Below are positions 16,710 to 64,000 of a stretch of DNA of 64,000 nt, piece after piece. The notes beneath the pieces are model-generated. The model was not told the origin of the DNA. It was given only the letters and a program-made list of their open reading frames with translations, and made no database searches. The stretch is from Lophium mytilinum (taxonomy: Eukaryota), in contig MU004181.1 of assembly GCA_010093605.1 (NCBI GenBank), forward strand, positions 3,038,001 through 3,102,000. The letters run 5' to 3'. Within the stretch, counting starts at the first letter, position 1, and each line of letters opens with the position of its first letter. The translations under genes and the position numbers were made by a program.

Positions 16710-19700
16710 ATGGACCATCGCGCCTTTCACGAGAAGGCGAAAACCCTCAAACCAGACCAAGAGATCGCTAGTAGGCGGTACTGGGTGGGCATCCTGAAAC
16801 ATGATCTCACCGAGCCGGACCCATCGACTGAGGCCGATTTTCTTTGGATCAAAGCGCATGCGGTTTGTGGCCTGTCTCGCCACTGTTGAAGTCTGGCTAA
16901 CACCTTGCGATAGAAAATCACCGTGCAGGTACTCACTTCGGAGTACGAGAAGCGATTCTGCTCCGATATTTCTCTAGAACTGGATAACGAGGCGCCTACG
17001 CACAGTACCCCACTTGCGGCCCTCAACACCTACGGCGACAACATTATCATATTTCGCGCTGTCCTAAAAACTGCAGCACCTCGACCCGCTCTGCAGCCTG
17101 TGAACCGACAATTGACCGCGGAACCGCAATTGCAGTTAACATCCCCTAGTAACGCAAAGGCACTCCTGACATCGCCAGCCGTACCCGACAGTGCGCCTAC
17201 TACAAACAATGCCACCACAGATGAGAACATAGTTGAGGGTCCTCCAGAGTCCACAGGTCAATCAACAGCTCAGACCGGTCTTCGTGACGCCACTACCTCC
17301 CAGGCCGTTCGGAGCTCCACGCCGGATATGGGGCCTATGGTTTCAAGACCTAAATCGCCACAGGACACGAAGCCCCAGATCAAGAATGAGCAAGAAGATC
17401 TTCGACCCGGTGTTTCTGGCCTCGATTCAGCTGGAGATTCCATTATGGCCGAAGCCACTCAGATGAAGGATGAGTCGCCGGAGCTAGAACCAGCGCCAAC
17501 GCCTTCGACGGAGCATCTTCTACGATTGATGGACGATGCGTCTCCGGATATTCTGGAAGTAGGAGTACGTAGAGCTATGAATTTGCTGAACAATCTTCAA
17601 GAGACGTTCTCGACAAATGCCGGAGTGGTTCAAGATGCGCAGCAATGGCTTGCATCTATCGATAACGTTCGGAAGCTCGCGATACGACAACGCACCGTCG
17701 TAGGCGTCGTAGGCAATACCGGCGCCGGAAAAAGCAGTGTCATCAACGCCATGCTTGACGAGGAGCGACTTGTCCCCACCAACTGCATGCGCGCATGTAC
17801 TGCAGTGGTAACTGAAATGTCTTGGAATGATAGCAAGGATGATCGCAAGAAGTACAGCGCCGCAATCGAGTTCATCTCAAAAGCAGACTGGGAGAAAGAG
17901 ATGAGCGTGTTGCTTAAAGATCTTCTTGGTCCTGACGGCGAAGTGTCCAGAGACTGTACAGATCCAGACAGCGAAGCTGGAGTAGCGTGGGCCAAATTCA
18001 AGGCTGTGTTCCCTCAGAAGACGAAGGACATGCTGGCTGGCAGCACGGTCGAATCACTTCTGAAGGACAAGTCGGTCCTGAGCGTGCTTGGAACTACTCG
18101 GAAGATCGTCGAATCGCAACCTGAAAGATTTTACAGCCGACTTCAGCACTATGTTGATAGCAAAGAGAAGGATACGAAGGTCGCCGGCAAGTATGCTGAG
18201 AAGAAGAAAGAAAAGAAAACCATGGAGTTCTGGCCGTTGATCAAGGTGGTGAAAATATACACCAAGTCTCCTGCGTTGTCAACTGGGGCTGTGATAGTGG
18301 ACCTTCCCGGTGTGCACGACTCAAACGCGGCCCGATCGGCCGTCGCCCAAGGGTACATGAAACAGTGTACTGGACTTTGGATTGTTGCCCCCATCAATCG
18401 TGCGGTTGATGATAAAGCAGCCAAATCCCTCCTAGGGGATTCATTCAAACGTCAATTGAAGTATGACGGGACATACTCGAACGTTACATTCATTTGTAGC
18501 AAAACAGATGATATCTCGATCACTGAAGCCGCCGACAGTCTTGGTTTGGACAAGGAAATATCTGAGTTTGACCAGGAAGAGCGGTCACTGAATCACCAAG
18601 TCAAGGATCTGGAAGAGAAAATCTCCGAGCTTCAAGAATCTAAGCAAATATACACAGAGATTATCGAGGAAATGGACGACCAGCTTGAAACCTGGGGAAC
18701 TATTGAAGATGACGTGCAGGACGGCCGCACAGTTTACCCACCAAAAAGTAAAGGCAAGCGAAAGCGGAATGCTTCTCCTGCTAAGTCTCGAAAGAGACGG
18801 GATCGCACTCCCGATTCCGACGACGACGACGACTTCGACGTTAGGAGCGGTTCCGACGACCCCAATGGTGAGCAGTCCGACGATGAGAACCAGACAGACT
18901 GCACTCCTCTCACCGAGGAGCAAGTTCACGATAAGATCAACGAGCTGAGGGACACTAAAAAGAATGCTCGGGCACAGAAGAGAGAGACGGACGTTGATAT
19001 CAAAGCCGCGAGGCAGAATATACGCCAACTTAAGGAAAAACGTGCCGATGTCAAGGCTAAGATGAGCGCAATCTGTATCGCCGGGCGGAACCAATACTCC
19101 AAGGGTGCGATCCAGCAAGACTTCGCAGCTGGAATTAAGGAACTCGACCAAGAAAATGCGATGGAGCAGGACGAGGAGAACTTCAATCCAGATGAGGACA
19201 TCCGGGACTATGACCATGTCGCCCGCAGCTTACCCGTATTTTGTGTCAGCAGCCGAGCTTACCAGAAGCTATGCGGGCGCCTCAAGAAGGATGCTCCCGT
19301 GCCAGGGTTCACGTCTATGGACGAAACTGAGGTAAGCTTCATACGCTAACTTTATCGCTAGTGCTCTGTTACATGCTCAAATATTCCTCACTCACGCGCT
19401 ATTGTCGCTGACTTTCAAATAGATTCCTCAGCTACAAGCTCACTGCAAGAAGCTAACGGAAGCTGGCAGGGCCTCGACTTGCCGCACATTCTTGAACAAC
19501 CTGAGCCAGTTACTTACATCACTGAACCTTTGGTCGTCGAACGATGGAAGCGGTATCAATTTCACGGACGAGGACAGGCGCAAGCAAGCTCATTTCCTAC
19601 ATAGGAAACTTGAGGAGCTCAGAAAGGTATGTGATTCCGCCTTGTCTCTAGAGGGGCTATAAAAGGCCTCAGCACAGGGCTGACACAACTCGGCCTACAG

Positions 19701-27097: not shown

Positions 27098-29059
27098 TTA
27101 CAACGACTTTGACTTCGTCTCCGTGGCCGACTCCGCACCCGCCGTGGTGTCATCATCCGCCGTAATCGGGTCAGCCACAACGCTTGACGTGGAGAATCCG
27201 GTGAAACTAGTATCCGTTCTGTGGTGCTCCTCTGATGCACGTCTCTTGTAAGCGTCCCAGGTAGGCAAGAAGCCTTGAGACGCTGCGCCTGGTCCTTCGA
27301 GTAGAAACTTTTCCAGCGATGACTCGGTGAACTCAGGCAACCCAGTCGACTCAAGAACAGCCTCCTTGGCCTTTCCCTTGGTATCAGCCTTCGGACCGCT
27401 ACTGCTCGCTTCGGCCTTGGCGCTGTCCTTCGAGGGTTCGGCGGGCTTTCCAATCTTGGTCTGCATCTTCTCGAACGCTTTGGATCCATCCCTTGATTCC
27501 AGCGTCTTTGCAATCCAATCTTCAACTTCCGCCAAGGACTTCTGGGGGTTCTTCGTGTTGACAAGGAAGCCCTGTACTTCGGCAGGCGTGATCTGACCTT
27601 CCGGGAATTTCTCCGAGAACTCCACAGCCATCTTCCTCAGCTCTTCCTCCTTCAGTTTCTTGTCTACTAACCAAATGGCATGCTCTTCATCGCCATTCCT
27701 GTCTCGGGAGAACATACGCATGAAGATGTCCTCGGCACTCTTCTTAGTCACAGGCCCGAAATAAACCGTCTGGTCAATGCGGCCCGGGCGGATCAGAGCC
27801 TTATCGAGCTTCTCCGGAGTATTAGTAGTCATGATCAGAACGCGGCCTTCTTGGGAGGTGGTCCCGTCGATAGCATTTAGCAGTCCACTCAGCGTGACCC
27901 GAGCCGTATTGTCCTGATAGTGGGATTGCTCCGTCCCAGACTCGTTGTTGTGCTCCCGAGTAATACCAGCCGAGTCAATATCCTCCAAGAGGACGATACA
28001 TTTGGGAGGAAGCGCAGCGAACAATTGGTCGAGCTCAGTGTCCCCAAGGCCTTGGCCAGAAAGAGTATAGAGCTCCAATTTGAAGTGTCCAGCGAGTGCG
28101 AAACACATAGACGTCTTCCCGGTGCCTGGAGGGCCGTGGAAGAGATACCCTCGGCGATACGGAATGCCACGGCGGCCGTATGAGCGTCTAGCTGTAGGGT
28201 GAAGATAGCCGTGGAGATCCTCGACAAGGGCAGCCTTGAGTGTCTCATCCATGTCGATTGTATCAAGTGGTCTGTCCGGCTTCAGGATTGGATCTGACCA
28301 GCATGCGGCCCGTCCTCCGTTCTTGATATGGATGGTTGTCAGCGCAGTGCGCGTCTTCTCTTCGAAGTCCTTGCACTCCTGAATGAAGCGCTTGAGGGGC
28401 GCGGTAGTCCTGCCGACGGAGAATATCACAATGTCTCCTCCTAAGCCTTTTCCAAAGAAGGCACCGTGTCCAGCTCCGTGTTGCACGTACATGAAGGGAC
28501 GCAATCCGTACCAAAACCACTGCGTGCCGATTGCAGGCGAATACGTAACAGTCGGAACTTTCTCATCAAAGTCGGATGGGTTGTAGGCGTAGGTTTGAGC
28601 CATTCCGTACATCGCATTGTATTTGCGATATGGGTCGTTCGCAGTGTCGTCGTTCTTGCTGGACTTGGCGGCCATATGTAGAGCGCCCTTCTCGATAACG
28701 TGGACAGCCATCCAGCTGGTCACCTCACGATACAACCGGTCGTTGGGGGAGATTGTGACTGAAGCACAGCAGAACCTCAAAAGTAGGCTCTTGATCTCTT
28801 GCTCTAGGTATCTTCCCACCTGAGTAGCCATCGTAAAGAAGATAGCACGCGACACGAGAGACGTGATATCGTACCGGAAATACTGGAGGAATAGCTGTCG
28901 CATGATGGAAAAGCCCGGGATGATGGCATCTAGAATGAGCGTGCTTGATGCTAGTTCGCCTGCATTGCCCTTGCTAGCCAGTTGGACGCCTGCGAGCTGG
29001 AGAGCGGTCGCCATGTTGAAGCCTTTTTTGGCTGATCGAGAAGGCCGAAAGCCGTCCAT
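27098..29059 (-). CDS. BCS1-like AAA ATPase
   Basis: BCS1_N-like region (TYSPAIGTQWFWY), RGIPYRRGYLFHGPPGTGKTS, Walker B VLLEDID, VTLSGLLNAIDG, ALIRPGRID, ITPAEVQG. Confidence 0.9.
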   Translation of the reverse strand: MDGFRPSRSAKKGFNMATALQLAGVQLASKGNAGELASSTLILDAIIPGFSIMRQLFLQYFRYDITSLVSRAIFFTMATQVGRYLEQEIKSLLLRFCCASVTISPNDRLYREVTSWMAVHVIEKGALHMAAKSSKNDDTANDPYRKYNAMYGMAQTYAYNPSDFDEKVPTVTYSPAIGTQWFWYGLRPFMYVQHGAGHGAFFGKGLGGDIVIFSVGRTTAPLKRFIQECKDFEEKTRTALTTIHIKNGGRAACWSDPILKPDRPLDTIDMDETLKAALVEDLHGYLHPTARRSYGRRGIPYRRGYLFHGPPGTGKTSMCFALAGHFKLELYTLSGQGLGDTELDQLFAALPPKCIVLLEDIDSAGITREHNNESGTEQSHYQDNTARVTLSGLLNAIDGTTSQEGRVLIMTTNTPEKLDKALIRPGRIDQTVYFGPVTKKSAEDIFMRMFSRDRNGDEEHAIWLVDKKLKEEELRKMAVEFSEKFPEGQITPAEVQGFLVNTKNPQKSLAEVEDWIAKTLESRDGSKAFEKMQTKIGKPAEPSKDSAKAEASSSGPKADTKGKAKEAVLESTGLPEFTESSLEKFLLEGPGAASQGFLPTWDAYKRRASEEHHRTDTSFTGFSTSSVVADPITADDDTTAGAESATETKSKSL

Positions 29060-30284
29060 TGCTGATCGAGAAGACCGAAGGCCGAAACGAGCAGACGATG
29101 ATGATACAGCTATGTCGCTAGCACTGCAGCACCGCGTCGAGGAAGGGTGTTGTGGGGTGTGCGATGAGCGGACGAAGGAAAGAGTGGGGCTAGGCGGAAG
29201 AAAGATATGACGCGTTGCGGTGACGCGCAAACAGACCGCCGTAGAATCTCGCTTCGGTGAAGAAGTGATCAGTCTATGGGAATCCACAGCATTCGAAAGA
29301 ACTCTGAACGTCTTCCACGCAGTGGTTTGTTAAGTCTTTTGCCTAAGTCGGCCACAGTTGCTTGATGTGCTTCCAAGCACCATCTAGAGTCCAGATAAGA
29401 AGGATATAGGGTTTTGAAGAACCTGTGACTTATATAAGCGGTCTCAGGCGACCACAGAGAATCGCACACCGCCGGCGGGCCGGCAACGCAATGTCTAGAT
29501 CTATCTCAAACTTTTGAAGTACCCGATACGACCAGAACAAGAGACATGGTGTATACGAATTTAGGATAGGACACAGGAACCGCACTTTACTTTCGGGCTG
29601 CATCGCCAATACTAAAAGACCCCGAGATGGCCCTTGTGACGTGACCGGACATGAACGAAGACCTACTATATACTCGAAAAGACAGATGCCCATCGGTTCC
29701 ATCAGATAACGCTCCATCTTTCAAGTGCATCCAGCACGACCAGAGGTGTTTAAGATTCCGAAGCTTGGCCTTGGGCAAGAATGCATCAAAAATGGCGTGC
29801 CTCCAAATCGTGTGAAACGACCCAGAAGTGAAGGCGGGCCTCAATTTAACTCACACTTGCTAGTTCTATATACGATGGAAACACAGAACGAGAGGCCTAG
29901 ATGGACTGGGCTCGGAACCGGGTACCATTGATGGAAGGCAATGAAATTTGTCTGCTAAAGGGTTCGTTCGGTTGAGGTTGAAACGAATGCTGCTTACATA
30001 ATCTTGGGGGCCCGCAGTCACGCCCCTTGGGCCTGAAGACGATTTTATGGGGCCGTGCATTTGACGATTCAATTAATGGGATCTACGAATTGATGGAAAT
30101 AAACCGCGGCCAACAACGCCACCCATGAAAAGCTTCTCGGTTTGCCATATCACCAAACGCCCGCTCGTTAGAAACTAGCGTTCCGACCTAATCAACGCAT
30201 ACATCCAGATTACAGTATCGCCCAATTTCTAGAGACCATTCTATCCGCCAAAAAACTACGACAAAAGCGCGCTATTCTTCGCGA

Positions 30285-55149: not shown

Positions 55150-56248
55150 CTTCAAGGGTATGAAAACAGCTTGAAGCAAGTTCAGAGGAGAGGTAGGTAT
55201 ATACTCCAACTTGAGGCCCAATCTTAAGACTGTGGTTTGGGCAGATGTGTTTGGGATGTGGCGGCACGATAGAAGTTGTACTTCCTCTGGACAAGGCCGT
55301 GGTGAATGATCCTATGCTATTTTCGTCCATCTGACTAGATTCCGATGGTTTGGGCCTTTGAGTTTCATCCCTCCGAGCCAAGGCGTCCCAAGTAACCCCT
55401 GTCAAACTTCCCGCCGCTAGAATAATCGCGGGTATTTAGAGCACCCCCTATTCCATTGGTGACCAGTTTGATACTTCTACCACATATCAAAACAGCCACA
55501 AATTTCGCCGAGCACTATATAATTGTATTCCTATGATCCAAGACTGAGGCAGATCTAGTGCTGGAGTCTCCACGGATCCGAACGGCAACTCTTGACGCTT
55601 TGTTCTATTCTAAGCGCCCTGGCGCCAGACATGCTGCAACAATGTTCGGTTCCCAGCGAATTCGAAACCCTAGACCCCACAAGGTACTTGGATATAAACA
55701 TCGGGCATATCTCTGGTAAGAGTGAACTACGGCGGTTCGGCTAAGAAAAGCAGCGCTACCCTACCGATTTCAGCGCTTAACTTCGAAAAACGCAAGGCTG
55801 CGGCGTGGGTTTCATTTCAAACACACAAGAAGGGAAAATCTACCCTACTTGGTTGGCTGAATGTGCCAAGGGACCCACCCATAAAGGATGCTTTTTGTGG
55901 GTATGTTATGCAGCGGTTAAACCAAAGAAAGGCAAGGCTGTATATTGCGACGTTGGTTAGATTCTAAAGACTCGATTGGTGAAAATCCAACCTTCTTAGT
56001 TGGTTGACTGTACCACAGGACCTACCCGCCAATGCCACCCCAAACATCGAGGCAAGTCTGCTGGCATATCTTTCGTCGGGATTGCGGCGTATGACTAGCA
56101 ATATTAGGCAGGGCTGCGGCGTAGGTTTGATTTCGAGAATTTATTTATGCATAGGACGATAATCTATACCTACTGCCCTTTGGGACTGAAAGTCCTGCGG
56201 ACCTTTAATATGTCTTTCGTACCCCTTCATATATGTTGAAGTATATGA

Positions 56249-56320
56249 CTTTCGTTCATCACATTCGTTTCGTTTATCACATCCGTTTCGTTCATCACAT
56301 CCGTTTCGTTCATCACGTCC
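56249..56320. repeat. 18-bp minisatellite, about 4 copies, in the 5' leader of the secreted-protein gene
   Basis: TTTCGTTCATCACAT(T/C)CG repeated directly after TATA-like TATATG elements. Confidence 0.85.
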
Positions 56321-56396
56321 CGAGCATATTGACCCCTACGTCTTCATCACTCTTTTCACATTCGTTCATACAATGGCAACGAGACCTCACTTTACC

Positions 56397-59300
56397 ATGA
56401 AGGCGTACTTGTTCATTCTTTTACAAAGTTATTTGGTCCTTGTCTCAGCACAAACTGCTAGCGGAACAGGAACGGCTGTCATCACCAATGGAATACCAAG
56501 ACCGCCGCCCATTTTACCTTTATATCCTATCCCTATAAATAGTACCGGAATACTGGGAGGAACCGGACCAGGAGTGACTCCAAGCACATCGCAACCCAAA
56601 ACGACGTTTTCGTCGGGAACTGCTGCAGGCACGAGCTCATCAGCTTTAGTCGCAGTCCCGTTCTCATTAAGTTCAGCGTCAGTCACTACCTCTTCAGTGA
56701 ACGGACCGTTAGATACTACATCCGCCCCGACCGAGAGCACGAACAGTTTTCCGATCTCGAGCTCTTCCATTTTATTATCTCCCGATTCAAGCGAAAGTGT
56801 GTCTTCTTCGTCGAGCTTGCAATCAACCATAGCAACTGAGCCTACGACCACACCTACTGCCACCGCGATTACGTCTTCGAGAACCGGATCAATTACCGCA
56901 GCTCCCTCAAGTACGAACATTATTCTGCCATCTGGAATTATCCTCACACCAGCCACTGCCGTCCTTGGTACGACAGGCACTGAGATTAAGACCAGCGCTT
57001 CAGACCTCTCAAGCTTGATAATAGGCATATTCCCAATTATTCAACAATGGATCGATGACCCCGGACATCAGCCTCCTAAAGTCACGGCAGTAACGGACGG
57101 GCTCAACAATATACTTCCTAGAGCATCCGAGTTCTTGAATAGGCTACCGAAACCCACCGATCCGATTGAACCATGTCAAAAAGGATCATCGAGGCGTTCA
57201 CTTCAAAAGAGGTCATTCCTTGACGGCTTGTTCAAATCGGTATTCAATCTAGTCACTTGTGTTGTTGACGACGGAAATAAGCTGAAAGACGGCATTACCG
57301 AGGGAGTTGAGGACACTGTGAAGACACTTACGAATGACTTAAGACCGATGATTGATGCTCTTAACAAAGTTGACCCTGGCGACGACTCCGACCCGTCTGC
57401 CTCAGTATCTAGTCAGCAGAGCTCTTCCCGGCAGTCTTCGTCCTCGTCGTCCTCCTCCTGCAGCTTGGAGACCGTAAGCAATTGTCAAATTGCTTGCACA
57501 GCAACAGCAATCACGACAGTAGGCGGAGCTAATATAGGAGCGGATGGCGAAGCATGTAGAACAATCTGCAGAATGTTGGACTGAAAAACCCCAAACAATA
57601 TCGGATGAGACAAGCTGTTTGAGACAAACCCATCTGTAGCCTATATCAGAAGAATCAACCCCCTCCTAACGGAGGGTATGGGTTTCCGAATTTCAACATG
57701 GTAGCTCAGATGGTTATTCACCAATTTGCCGGGGCCCATCCACCCTATCAGGGGGTGTAAAACATCTGCTCACCACCCACAGCTATTCACCACTTGCGCC
57801 TATCCACCACTCGCTATTGTACCGTGGCCGACCAGATGAATCCAAGCAGCTGTATCCGACACCTAGGGCAGATGAATCCGTTTCCCACGAGCCTGAGAGC
57901 CGTGATGAGAGCCTGTACCTGGAATCGTTTGAGAACCGTCTGCAGAGAGCCTGCCGGAGCGGATGGTGCGAAGGAAGGGAGGATACGGAGGACAAGGAAG
58001 AGAGAATGGGGCGGCATTTACTAGACAAGAAGGCTGTTTATTACGGAAGGAGGTCAGCATTTACCATCGAGAAGGGGGCCAAGAGTATCGTTTGTGGTTT
58101 TCTGGGGGAGTGTTGGACTGAAAAACCCCAAACAATATCGGATGAGACAAGCTGTTTGAGACAAACCCATCTGTAGCCTATATCAGAAGAATCAACCCCC
58201 TCCTAACGGAGGGTATGGGTTTCCGAATTTCAACACAGAACACCTATCACAGCGTGTAGTGCTACTGCGGTAACATCAGTGTTTACGTCTACTGTAACAT
58301 CTACCTCTTCAGGATTTCAGATATGCTCCCCCGGTTGCTCAGAATGTGCACATAATAAGGCGCCACCACAGCCCACGGGCATCAACCTCTCAGGCGTAAT
58401 GACGGCGTCTAACGGTCACCTTTTCCTTCCCCCGGAGACCTCACTACCCGCGGATGAAACTCTCGCAGCCCGTGGTACGTATCCAAAAGAAACCAGCACC
58501 CCAGGCCAAGGACCTTCCAAGAGAGCACTCTTCAATCCCAAAGATGCGCTTTTCAGTAACGTGAAGGACTTCATTCTATTTCAACTCGTTATGGCAACTA
58601 TTCTTGACCACGGCGAAACCGCCAGTGTCTGCTCGACTGCTATGACTTATACCTTAACAGACGTTCCGGATCTCTGGGCAGTGGTTAATCTTTACGGCTG
58701 CACATCCGTTATTGTGGTCTCCCGAAAGCGAATATGGATGTCGCACTTTTGGGAGGGCCCTTCCTTCCTACAGCCCAACAACTTCCGTCCGGAAGTTCTC
58801 GATGCAATGCGCAACGGCGGTGCAGGCATCCAGCAAGGAATTGCCGCATTCACAGGCCCCGGTGGCGATTTCGAAAACACACCAGAGAACAAAGTCCGTG
58901 CCTTCATTGTCACGCCGTATCGGCGTGGTGAATTTAATCCGGCACACGATGATTGGCAATTTCCGTCTGAAATTGGAAAAATGAGAGATGTATTGCACGA
59001 CATCTTAGGAAGGGAAGACGAATTGATGTACGTTCTACCCAAACTTACTACCTAGGTTAATGCTAATTCACCAAAAGCATTCCATATATTACCCGAGGGC
59101 GCGACCCGGGAGTCCCTGGTGCTCCTGGCTTTTACACCATGCCTTACGGTAAGGTCATAGTCCAATATGACCCTTTGCAAGCGCGTATGCAGGGGCCTGG
59201 GGGTGCCAGTTGCAAAGGGCCCAGCTCGAGGTACTGAGAGCCCTTCCCTACCAGTATTAGTGAAGCTACATATCGGATACTTATTGCACTTTACCTTTGT

Positions 59301-60492: not shown

Positions 60493-62592
60493 TTAGACAT
60501 CATAGGGAGACAGCACGTCCTCCCATCCTTTCTTCTCCTTGTAGAGCTCCCAGAACTTTCTGAAGACTCTCCTCTCGATGAAACTCAAGATGGCGGCTTC
60601 GTTCATTTCAGCTTGCCCCCCACGGTACTTTTCGAATTCGGTCAAAAGCACTACCATCTCCCGTGACCCAACGATATCCTCCGGTCTACTCCAATCAACC
60701 TCATCATATCCACCGAGGTGTTGTGCGTGTGGGAGGATTACGAAACGCGCGAAGGCAGCAATGGCCTCGACATGTTCTGGCAGCAGCGGCTTCCCATCGC
60801 TACGAGCGAGGAAGACAGAGCCAGGACACGTCTGATATAGCTCTGCTTTCATAGCCACATCAATATCGTTACTAGTGAGTTTGTTGTTAAGGCGCCGGGT
60901 ATTGAAGTGAAGGAATGAGACCAAAGGGTTGCGGGATGCGGCAACAGTCCACGCGCGATCCGGAGCCACCTGCCAAGTGCGTATTGGGATTTCAAGACGA
61001 TTGGTGAAGGAAGGTTTGACGCTAGTACGATTGATGCCGTCAGAGGTATATAAGTCGGCGATACGCGGCAGTTCCGTTGTTCGTACCCACTTCCCCTGAG
61101 GATGGAGGCGGGGAAGGAGGATCTTGCGAGCGGAGGCGGTCCCTCTGATCAGGCGTTCGCCATCGCAGTCTATGCAGACAGCTTCGACCCTCCCAGTACG
61201 TGGTGCTTGTTTTGGTGGTCCCTCTTCTGTGAATGCAAGCCATGCGTCGTTCTGGAGATCGGACACGGATAGTGCGTCAACAACGTAACGATAATCCGAG
61301 GGTTCCAGATCGCGGAGAGACCCATCGCATAGAGTAGCGCACACAACGACGGAGCCTACCCAGCGGAGTGGACTCAGGTAGGCGGTTGCAATGGATATGC
61401 ATTTGTTGGCTGAGGAAGAGTCTGTAATGGAGGGTGCTCGGTAAAATATAGTGAGGTCGTCATGCAACTCGCGGCCTAAGATGCCATTCCGGGAAATAGT
61501 CGCTGTCATAATGCCGCTACCTATCTCTGCCGTGCTGAGACCCGAGGAACGCCCCAGGAGATTCAAATGTATCGCGATCTTTGGGTCATGGCCGCCTTGT
61601 AACCAGATCCAACGTGGTCGGTCGCTCTTAGCTGACATCAAAATTGCACGGTAAGGCTTCGAGGTAGGTCGGAAGTGGCCGGTATAGAGACTGAACGTTC
61701 TGCAAAGCGCTTCATGTGTTGGGAGGTCTTCCAGCTCGCACTCTGAGCTGCAGTAACGTATGCCCTGGCAATTCTTGCAGGGAACCCCAGGGGCAGAACA
61801 GAGGGCGCAGAGGGCATCTGAGCTAACCTGTTCTGTCTCGGTTTTCGAAGCCTCAGGATTGAAGGTTTCTGTTTGGGCTTTGATAGCGTTGATCCCCTGC
61901 TCCTGCTTCAGTCCAATAGGATTCTTGGAGTTCATGTGCTCTATGTTCTCGCCACCGTGAATACGGTTATCCAATGACCATCTGGCTTTGAACTCCAATT
62001 TCTTCTTCACAGAAAAGCTGTAAAAAGATGGTTTTGCGAGGACATCGTTTTCCGCAAGTGGGTGTTTCGCGTTCTTCTCGCCACCGTGAACATGGTTTTT
62101 TAAGGTCCATGCTGCCTTGAACTCCGGGTTCGTCTTCCCAGAGAAGCCGTAAGTAGATGTGCTTGCGAGAACATCGTTTTCCGCAGGGTGGTGTTTCGCG
62201 TTCTTCTCGGACTGCATCATAGGCTTAGGTTCGCTGGGTATGACAGAGTCAACGGACATAGTATCACTCCCAGAGTCGTCGTTCTTTTCCATCTTGGTAT
62301 CGATTCGAACTGAATTGACCTGAGCGGGTGTGACTTCCGTAGTGTCTACTAGAGTGTTGACTTGAGCAGTGTCACGCTGAGCGGCGTCGACTGAAGGTTG
62401 AGGAGGAAGTCGAGGTATCACCACCTGCGGTGAAGGTCCGCGGCGTGGATTTCTAGGATCGGCGTCAAGGGGACCGCTGGGCGAAGTGAATGGCAACTTT
62501 CTCTTTCTGTCTTTGGTTCCGGATCTGAGGTTATCCGCAACCTTACGCTCGTCGCCGGCGCTGAAGCTGTTGTTATCCTCAGCCTCTACCAT
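60493..62592 (-). CDS. MYND zinc-finger protein
   Basis: CALC..CKNCQGIRYCSSECELEDLPTHEALC, GSVFLARSDGKPLLPEHVEA, C-terminal SPYDV; intronless, 699 aa. Confidence 0.85.
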   Translation of the reverse strand: MVEAEDNNSFSAGDERKVADNLRSGTKDRKRKLPFTSPSGPLDADPRNPRRGPSPQVVIPRLPPQPSVDAAQRDTAQVNTLVDTTEVTPAQVNSVRIDTKMEKNDDSGSDTMSVDSVIPSEPKPMMQSEKNAKHHPAENDVLASTSTYGFSGKTNPEFKAAWTLKNHVHGGEKNAKHPLAENDVLAKPSFYSFSVKKKLEFKARWSLDNRIHGGENIEHMNSKNPIGLKQEQGINAIKAQTETFNPEASKTETEQVSSDALCALCSAPGVPCKNCQGIRYCSSECELEDLPTHEALCRTFSLYTGHFRPTSKPYRAILMSAKSDRPRWIWLQGGHDPKIAIHLNLLGRSSGLSTAEIGSGIMTATISRNGILGRELHDDLTIFYRAPSITDSSSANKCISIATAYLSPLRWVGSVVVCATLCDGSLRDLEPSDYRYVVDALSVSDLQNDAWLAFTEEGPPKQAPRTGRVEAVCIDCDGERLIRGTASARKILLPRLHPQGKWVRTTELPRIADLYTSDGINRTSVKPSFTNRLEIPIRTWQVAPDRAWTVAASRNPLVSFLHFNTRRLNNKLTSNDIDVAMKAELYQTCPGSVFLARSDGKPLLPEHVEAIAAFARFVILPHAQHLGGYDEVDWSRPEDIVGSREMVVLLTEFEKYRGGQAEMNEAAILSFIERRVFRKFWELYKEKKGWEDVLSPYDV

Positions 62593-63226
62593 GATGCTTG
62601 GTTGACTGTTGATTGTAGAAGGTTGAAGGACTACTAGTCGTCCAAGAGTTGGAGAAGTAGAAGTGAAATAGTCAAATCAAGCAGTTACGTGAGCGGTACT
62701 TGGTGTAGTTCGATTCAAGTGAGGAAATATGAACACTCATCCCTAATATGAGATTGGCCTGACCCCAGGAATAGGCCAGTGAACGGTGTCAAGGTAACCT
62801 AGAAGTTTCAGAACGGGCGGGACGTTACTTCACAAGACCTGTCGAGGAAACGCCCTGTTTGACGACCAGATACGTAATCACCGAAAGTGCTTGATAGCAA
62901 GCTGATCATGGTAAGAATGTAGAACAGGAGTAACTCGAAATCTTTTAGTCTTAATTGACTTTTATGACGAGAAAAGCCGTATCCATGAGCTTGAAGCTCG
63001 ATAGCGCCTACCTCTATGCTGGTCATATACGCCCGATGACCATCGAGGGCCGTTACGCATTCCTTGTCATACCGCCATGCCTCTGTCCTATGTACCGCCT
63101 CATAATCGTAACCAGCTAATCCAAGCCCTACCCCTTGCTCGCCTATAAGGAGAATAAAGGTAAAGGGAAGCTACTAGTTACATACCTTCTGATGCAGAGT
63201 ACTGGAGATCAAAGTACCTGGAGATT

Positions 63227-64000
63227 CTACGCATCTGCCTCGACAACTCCACCCTCGTCGCTCGCGCTCTCGTCTTCGTCACCGCTGATCTCCTCGTTCT
63301 CGCGAGCTCGCTTCTCCATCAATGCCTGCAGTTCTGCGTCATCGTTTTCGGTAACTGCCTTGGGCGCCATCTTGACGATGAGGTTACCACCAGCTTTTGT
63401 GATGTTCTCCTCAATTTCCTTGATAGCATCTGTGAGAGTGGTGATGCCGACATTCTTGTCGAGACATTGGCTAGTCTGTGGCACGCTCGTTAGATGGTTG
63501 TTTCAACGAGGCCAGGGGTGTGATGGGTCATAGAGAGCAAAGTCCGAATACTTACCAAGACATATAGGGGCGGGCTGACGAGCTTGACTTTAACATGGTT
63601 GTCTGGCGTATTCTTGGCTTCTGCGCAGCGGAGAGCAGTTTTGACGGCGTCGATGCCTTCGTAGCCAAAGCATGTGACCTCAACATCGGAGCGGACCTTG
63701 GTTGGTTGAGGCGTCAATCGCTTTCCTATGTAGCTTTGTAGCTCGTCCTTGACTACGTCATTGGTGAATTCGCTAGAAGAGATTAGCGTTAATATCAACA
63801 CTTCGTAGCGGAAGTACTCACATGCCGGACCACACTTCTGGGTTCGTGATGGACTAATTGCAAGGTTAACACTACAGTTTATAGCAATCTATAAGGACAA
63901 AGTCGCTCACGAGCTTGAACGCATCAACTGCGTGGCCGTACTTCTTGTTGAGTGGCCATCCAATGGTAGAGTAAAGCTCCTCAATCGGGGTGTTCGTCTT
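63227..64000 (-). CDS. SUI2: Translation initiation factor eIF2 alpha, 3' part
   Basis: IGWPLNKKYGHAVDAFKLS|ITNP, KRLTPQPTKVRSDVEVTCFGYEGIDAVK, KLVSPPLYV, PKAVTENDDAELQALM; gene runs off the window end. Confidence 0.96.

Follow-up and report, generated by a model that had tools for sequence, protein, structure and literature searches.

TRIMs (terminal-repeat retrotransposons in miniature) are defined as elements of less than 1000 bp that encode no proteins and have two long terminal repeats (LTRs), with a PBS (primer binding site) and a polypurine tract (PPT) at the two ends of the internal part (PMC10886601; the literature comparisons here and below draw on the cited passages of each paper). 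Such elements have been annotated in the class Dothideomycetes: Cochliobolus heterostrophus has nine TRIMs, seven related to Copia-1_CH and two Gypsy-related, and the Copia-1_CH family shows 5-bp sites and TG..CA LTRs (PMC4112212), while Zymoseptoria tritici has a single TRIM family (PMC10652580, PMC12612061). Helenus/TRIMp3, another small fungal group, carries a tRNA-derived Pol III promoter (A/B boxes) in its LTR and is described from Pucciniales and some Agaricomycetes (PMC10886601). Here we analysed a 662-bp element that lies inside a host gene in a stretch of 64,000 nucleotides of Lophium mytilinum (contig MU004181.1, positions 3,038,001 to 3,102,000 of the forward strand; hereafter the window, whose own numbering is used throughout). 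Our analysis suggests, with a probability of roughly 85%, that this is a miniature LTR element of the TRIM type, not a one-off, which was copied in trans into codon 401 of the host gene and disrupted it. If so, the locus would be a tidy natural case of gene loss via a miniature retroelement in a fungus.

The element resembles the TRIMs described in PMC10886601 in its size, its TG..CA LTRs, its PPT, the absence of proteins, the 5-bp target site duplication (TSD) and the presumed reliance on an autonomous LTR element. Its PBS-like site fits in position and in the TGG start, and would be complementary to a host tRNA. The host is different, being a Pleosporales fungus here. The TRIMs of C. heterostrophus and Z. 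tritici are from the same class and of the same element kind, as compared by description only; the cited passages give counts and describe no gene-disrupting young copy. An earlier note on this DNA, made from the letters alone, had called TRIMs much less well described in fungi than in plants. The kind does fit a TRIM, but TRIMs are annotated in the two species above and in others, and the element is an ordinary member of a kind already annotated in Dothideomycetes. Its internal domain of 412 bp is long for a TRIM when judged by plant elements.

Two other small fungal systems were considered and rejected. Helenus is like our element in being a small fungal non-autonomous LTR element with a PBS, a PPT and a 5-bp TSD, and unlike it in the tRNA-like unit of the LTR and in not being reported from ascomycetes in the passages cited. 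ARAGORN found 0 genes here, and Rfam cmscan at E<=10 over 57450-58350 gave three chance-level matches, none of them to tRNA or 5S; the element is therefore not a Helenus, since its LTRs hold no tRNA-like module. The self-priming elements of the Tf1 type are also small, fungal and non-coding and of similar size, but the PBS here starts with the tRNA-type TGG. In Tf1-type elements the PBS is perfectly complementary to the beginning of the element's own transcript within the LTR. Here the longest exact complement between PBS and LTR is 7 nt, and the pairing energy of -17.5 kcal/mol is reached by 74 of 1000 shuffled LTRs.

The extent of the element and of its internal domain was read directly from the sequence. 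The two LTRs are letter-for-letter identical over 125 bp; the repeat search gave 128 nt at 99% for the pair, as three flanking bases were included. Each LTR runs from TGTTG to CAACA, i.e. it has TG..CA ends within a perfect 5-bp terminal inverted repeat. CAGAA stands on both sides of the element as the TSD, a match with a chance expectation of 1 in 1024. Directly behind the 5' LTR is TGGTAGCTCAGATGG, which starts with TGG, and the purine run GGGGGAG abuts the 3' LTR. Hence all the cis elements claimed by the earlier note within 662 bp are present (LTRs, TG..CA ends, a PBS-like site, PPT and TSD), and the identity of the two 125-bp LTRs is borne out with zero differences. No further copy of the element was found within the window.

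The host gene becomes visible when the element is removed together with one copy of the TSD. This 667-bp excision fuses the open reading frame (ORF) 56190..57584 and the ORF 58207..59055 in frame, just as had been noted from the letters. With the element in place the upstream frame reads CRMLD and terminates after 11 bases of the 5' LTR (stop codon 57582-57584), so that the product would have at most 403 residues and be without the conserved C-terminal Cys/His domain. The upstream part of the protein has a signal-peptide-like start and is rich in Ser/Thr. The best relative, P0001, is a hypothetical protein of 921 aa from a Pleosporales fungus, and the next two relatives are also from Pleosporales. 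Upstream residues 139-392 align with P0001 203-456 (56% identity, E 3e-83) and the downstream half with P0001 438-701 (62% identity, E 3e-104); the frame 59067-59237 aligns with P0001 702-745, directly continuing the match of the previous exon. These alignments of both halves and of the next exon indicate that the homologue is unbroken across the insertion point. The downstream half has 311 relatives at E<=0.001 in a profile-free HMMER search, 79 of them at E<=1e-10 and 15 at E<=1e-30. The disruption claimed earlier thus concerns a genuine gene, since P0001 runs unbroken across the site. The host gene is real and split without further decay, and the element interrupts a coding exon of this gene for a secreted-looking protein and truncates it.

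Could the element be spliced out as a 664-nt intron, so that the gene would keep its reading frame, gain a single codon and not be knocked out? A GT at 57575-57576 and an AG at 58237-58238 would give this in-frame outcome, and a branch-point-like CTAAC at 58203-58207 precedes this AG by about 30 nt. The donor GTTGGA is poor, however, compared with the GTACGT used by the gene's own intron, and 664 nt is very long against the 50 nt of that intron. We consider splicing of the element very improbable.

The insertion lies between two short peptide repeats of the host gene, ACTATAITTV... (57480-57520) and ACSATAVTSV... (58250-58285). P0001 has one copy of this peptide motif, and the window gene is longer here by about 18 residues. 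An 18-bp tandem repeat (3.9 copies, 92% matches) was also observed at 56250-56320, about 50 bases upstream of the first ATG.

We examined the read support and the relatives of the element in sequencing runs. Eight runs hold part of the window region 57000-58800, and four of the eight (X1, X3, X4 and X8) were compared at 85% likeness. X1 and X2, which are one sample and contain 95% of the sampled words, may be the very data behind the assembly. A total of 33 X1 contigs were aligned, and the differences, pieces and loose ends given below are from those listed for them. Three of its records bridge borders of the element with 0 differences: record 1 runs from the flank into the 5' LTR (57000-57603), record 3 from the internal domain into the 3' LTR (57751-58133), and record 7 from the 3' LTR into the flank (58206-58800). 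No X1 contig joins both flanks directly. The presence of both LTRs in the reads, on which the earlier note had made its proposal depend, is therefore supported by X1 contigs bridging the junctions, with the reservation that X1 is possibly the assembly's own sample. An assembly artefact, i.e. a repeat wrongly placed in the gene, would gain from this reservation, as only X1 and X2 hold the locus. It is hardly credible when set against the zero-difference contigs at the junctions, the absence of a flank-to-flank contig and the perfect TSD, which is not expected from a misassembly.

Relatives of the whole element are found in the same run. Record 2, contained in a 22-kb contig, shows 5' LTR, internal domain and 3' LTR in collinear order with 28+16 differences, and 154 other letters stand in place of the central 160 bp. 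In record 4 (371 bp), the stretch 57751-58117 is matched collinearly, with 45 differences and 6 gaps. Both records are additional copies with this miniature layout, at about 88% identity to the element. The stretch before the 3' LTR is common to five other X1 contigs, all of which have C at 58103. At the LTR borders, among the loose ends listed, at least three contigs leave the element behind 57698, at least two before 58111 and at least two behind 58237. The word depth of X1, summed over contigs and hence not a copy number, is 164-175 in the flanks. It rises to 343-349 in the element's centre, to 511-1538 at both internal-domain ends and to as much as 1956 per bin in the LTRs. This depth pattern, together with the different loose ends, indicates that LTR-like sequence occurs in several other contexts and that the PBS and PPT sides are common to more elements than the centre is. 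Shared cis ends with a rarer centre would look like a TRIM together with longer relatives.

The same pattern bears on a one-off internal deletion of a full-length element, which would have kept the LTRs, PBS and PPT and would belong to no miniature family. Such a deletion is in keeping with internal-domain ends common to more contigs than the centre, and with an exact internal sequence that is single-copy (record 3). It does not agree with records 2 and 4, which have this miniature layout across the entire internal domain, or with the lack of any detectable gag or pol remnant there. The earlier note had itself pitted this deletion against its proposal, and the two additional miniature copies in X1 leave it quite improbable.

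We found no detectable gag or pol remnant in the internal domain by Pfam and protein-relative searches. One internal frame is open for 168 codons (57670-58176), a length reached by 30 of 2000 dinucleotide-preserving shuffles; it is only mildly unusual and is without an ATG near its start. This frame and the internal domain show no Pfam family at E<=0.01, and no protein relative of the frame was found among 214 longer and 22 similar-length candidates sharing words with it. A coding internal frame was rejected on these grounds, i.e. no Pfam family, no relatives and a length that is only mildly unusual among shuffles. The element is accordingly treated here as putatively non-coding, and no coding capacity was detected, in agreement with the earlier reading and with the 168-codon open frame as a caveat.

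We propose that another LTR element would have supplied the reverse transcriptase and integrase with which this one was copied via RNA, and that its insertion into codon 401 would have duplicated the 5 bp CAGAA. The 3' end of a tRNA would prime reverse transcription at the PBS, and a gag-pol partner would share the LTR ends, TGGTAGCTCAG and the PPT side. The anatomy, the in-frame empty site with its unbroken homologue and the two sibling copies are shown by the sequence data; mobilization in trans is inferred.

The PBS core (57699-57709) shows no difference among those listed for the related contigs, the first one listed being 57710 A>T. The PBS starts with TGGTAGC, which it shares with TGGTAGCAGAGC, the tRNA-Met PBS of the metazoan GalEa copia elements (PMC5445492), and Ty1/copia elements are usually primed by initiator tRNA-Met (PMC8515867). 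Because of this start, the same as in Met-primed copia-type elements, the primer is probably the 3' end of the initiator tRNA-Met. The implied tRNA 3' end would pair as A1-U72, a hallmark of eukaryotic initiator tRNA. In a Ty1 study, a primer that would begin right after the Ty1 LTR reportedly has TGGTAGCGCC. ARAGORN found no tRNA gene in the 64-kb window. A string search of the literature for the PBS returned only unrelated primers, and a search for copia PBS in ascomycetes gave no match. Dependence on a copia element would agree with the TGGTAGC start of the PBS and with the 5-bp TSD (PMC8515867, PMC5445492). A gypsy partner is possible as well, the 5-bp TSD being compatible with gypsy elements and not with copia alone.

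Several observations weigh against the reading of a miniature element copied in trans. An autonomous partner was not found: a metagenome scan for the junction of LTR end and PBS, with one position degenerate, and another for the start of the LTR each gave 0 matches. In X1 the exact internal sequence is single-copy, record 3 having a depth of 156.9 against 164-175 in the flanks. No near-identical sibling or donor copy was seen in this run, the nearest centre-covering copies being about 88% identical, so that the donor copy would be missing or much diverged. The active family proposed by the earlier note does not stand well on these numbers. The two copia clades dominating Pezizomycotina have priming sites that differ from this PBS, fungal GalEa using a hairpin site and FunCo1 using ATTAAGAGTCT (PMC5445492), and the partner would therefore come from another clade or superfamily. 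The PBS is assigned by its position and TGG start and its tRNA match is putative, and the PPT is just 7 nt long. To these add the limit on the summed depths given above and the junction support of X1, which may not be independent if X1 is the source of the assembly.

The age of the insertion was considered together with repeat-induced point mutation (RIP). The element has a TpA/ApT index of 0.70 and a (CpA+TpG)/(ApC+GpT) index of 1.25, like the flanks and the whole window, and the earlier claim that this copy shows no sign of RIP is supported by these indices. The relatives are different in this respect. Compared with the element, the X1 relatives show 25 C>T and 26 G>A among 92 differences, against 7 T>C and 16 A>G (51 versus 23, binomial p 0.0015). 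At least 19 C>T/G>A sites are found among the differences listed, 16 in X1 and 3 in X3 only, and 10 of them are in CpA (p 0.015, with a CpA background of 89/332 cytosines). This skew with its CpA bias suggests that the relatives carry RIP-like damage, and the family apparently does not wholly escape RIP-like mutation. In Neurospora, RIP of linked repeats needs about 400 bp at >80% identity (PMC3318451). With 662 bp and relatives above 80% identity, the element exceeds both values, so the earlier suggestion that it is small enough to evade RIP is unsupported and runs counter to the CpA-biased C>T/G>A excess in its siblings. That this copy is clean speaks for sexual cycles having been few or absent after its insertion, or for RIP being weak on short repeats that are unlinked.

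With 0 differences in 125 bp, the divergence of the LTRs is below 2.4% at 95%, which corresponds to about 1-12 million years if rates between 1e-8 and 1e-9 per site and year are assumed. The label of a very young insertion goes further than this, its age being unmeasurable from LTRs for which 0/125 differences only bounds the divergence below ~2.4%. The insertion might thus be old, its LTRs identical merely because they are short, in a long-dead pseudogene and from an extinct family. Besides the bound on divergence, the distance of about 12% to the nearest centre-covering copies and the missing near-identical donor are in line with this possibility. Yet both gene halves are still open (400 + 262 codons) and share 56-62% identity with the homologue, canonical signals are retained in the 50-nt intron, the TSD is perfect, and no RIP signature is seen despite the presence of copies that are >80% identical. 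We regard an old insertion as unlikely. A recent event would be what the perfect TSD, the open gene halves and the intact intron point to, and we also infer recency from the identical LTRs, the missing RIP signature and the intact downstream frame.

Related sequence is found in further runs. X3, a run labelled as another organism, has the LTR with 1 difference in 125 at a depth of 230 (record 14). It also has LTR variants that are absent from X1, e.g. at eight positions on a contig of depth 1684, and both X3 and X1 show the same 30-letter loose end before 57692. Two X3 contigs match exactly at depths of 2.6-2.9, one in the left flank and one in the element centre; these may be traces of the source DNA. 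Of the host-gene flanks, X3 covers at 85% likeness no more than 57000-57110, by the 111-base trace contig. The X3 LTR is most simply read as a sign that the two fungi are closely related, and contamination or transfer between species may also explain it. X4 and X8 each hold one low-depth contig of 203 bp that is 97% identical to 58266-58468, and X5-X7 are listed with the same small share. The empty site is not spanned by any contig of another organism, those of X4 and X8 beginning 26 bases downstream of the insertion.

Since the family needs cis signals only, it may tolerate RIP-type mutation that is lethal to its autonomous relatives. We speculate that a protein-less LTR family could still be mobile in a RIP-competent Pleosporales fungus, perhaps tolerating RIP and spreading between species, and we consider this idea doubtful. 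The high depth of the near-identical X3 LTR, next to host-gene flanks that X3 hardly covers, would be in keeping with it. The finding would gain in importance if there were many young copies without an intact autonomous partner, or if the X3 LTR were due to transfer.

We also looked at the product of the split gene. No Pfam family was recognized in either half of the host protein or in five homologues. In the downstream half, Cys154 and His169 are the same in all of 50 aligned sequences. An AlphaFold model of the C-terminal domain has a mean pLDDT of 76.4, with residues 100-270 mostly above 90. Foldseek against PDB gave no match for the host domain at E<=0.001. The five best hits of a wide VIA-align search are CheD, NTAN1, YlmD, BLF1 and YfiH, with 105-137 residues aligned at Z 7.7-6.3, where a Z under 8 can reflect a common arrangement; the catalytic domains of CNFy and CNF1 are lower in the list at Z 4.5-4.7. 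CheD, NTAN1, YlmD, BLF1, YfiH and the CNF proteins share one cysteine-hydrolase/deamidase fold. This fold and the invariant Cys and His suggest that the C-terminal host domain is Cys-His amidohydrolase-like, which is reasonable but unproven. They likewise suggest a secreted family of Cys-His deamidase/amidohydrolase-like proteins in Pleosporales, with the predicted domain encoded by 58240-59027 and 59078-59237. The features of the element and of its host gene are collected in Table 1.

Table 1. Positions of the element and host-gene features in the 64,000-nucleotide window.
Feature	Position	Strand	Basis or remark
Host gene, upstream part	56373..57573	+	400 codons from first ATG and first base of codon 401
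Left TSD copy (CAGAA)	57569..57573	+	read directly; identical to 58236-58240
5' LTR, 125 bp, TGTTG...CAACA	57574..57698	+	repeat comparison; same as 3' LTR
TATAT motif in 5' LTR	57642-57646	+	putative promoter role
6-bp hairpin in 5' LTR	57661-57676	+	
PBS-like site TGGTAGCTCAGATGGTTA	57699..57716	+	TGG right after the CA of the LTR
Internal domain, 412 bp, putatively non-coding	57699..58110	+	no Pfam family, no protein relatives
Short polypurine tract GGGGGAG	58104..58110	+	adjoins 3' LTR
3' LTR, 125 bp, same as 5' LTR	58111..58235	+	repeat comparison
Right TSD copy (CAGAA)	58236..58240	+	read directly
Host gene, downstream part	58241..59027	+	frame open; conserved domain with Cys154 and His169 (numbered from 58240)
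Host intron, 50 nt, GTACGT...AAG, intact	59028..59077	+	sequence; next exon from 59078

Elsewhere in the window, four long ORFs show no Pfam family, and three others match known proteins: a dynamin-family GTPase (16914-19349), a BCS1-like AAA ATPase (27098-29329) and a MYND zinc-finger protein (60493-62676). The sole 2-kb block of the window with borderline RIP-like indices is 62001-64000, with a TpA/ApT index of 0.94 and a substrate index of 1.00.

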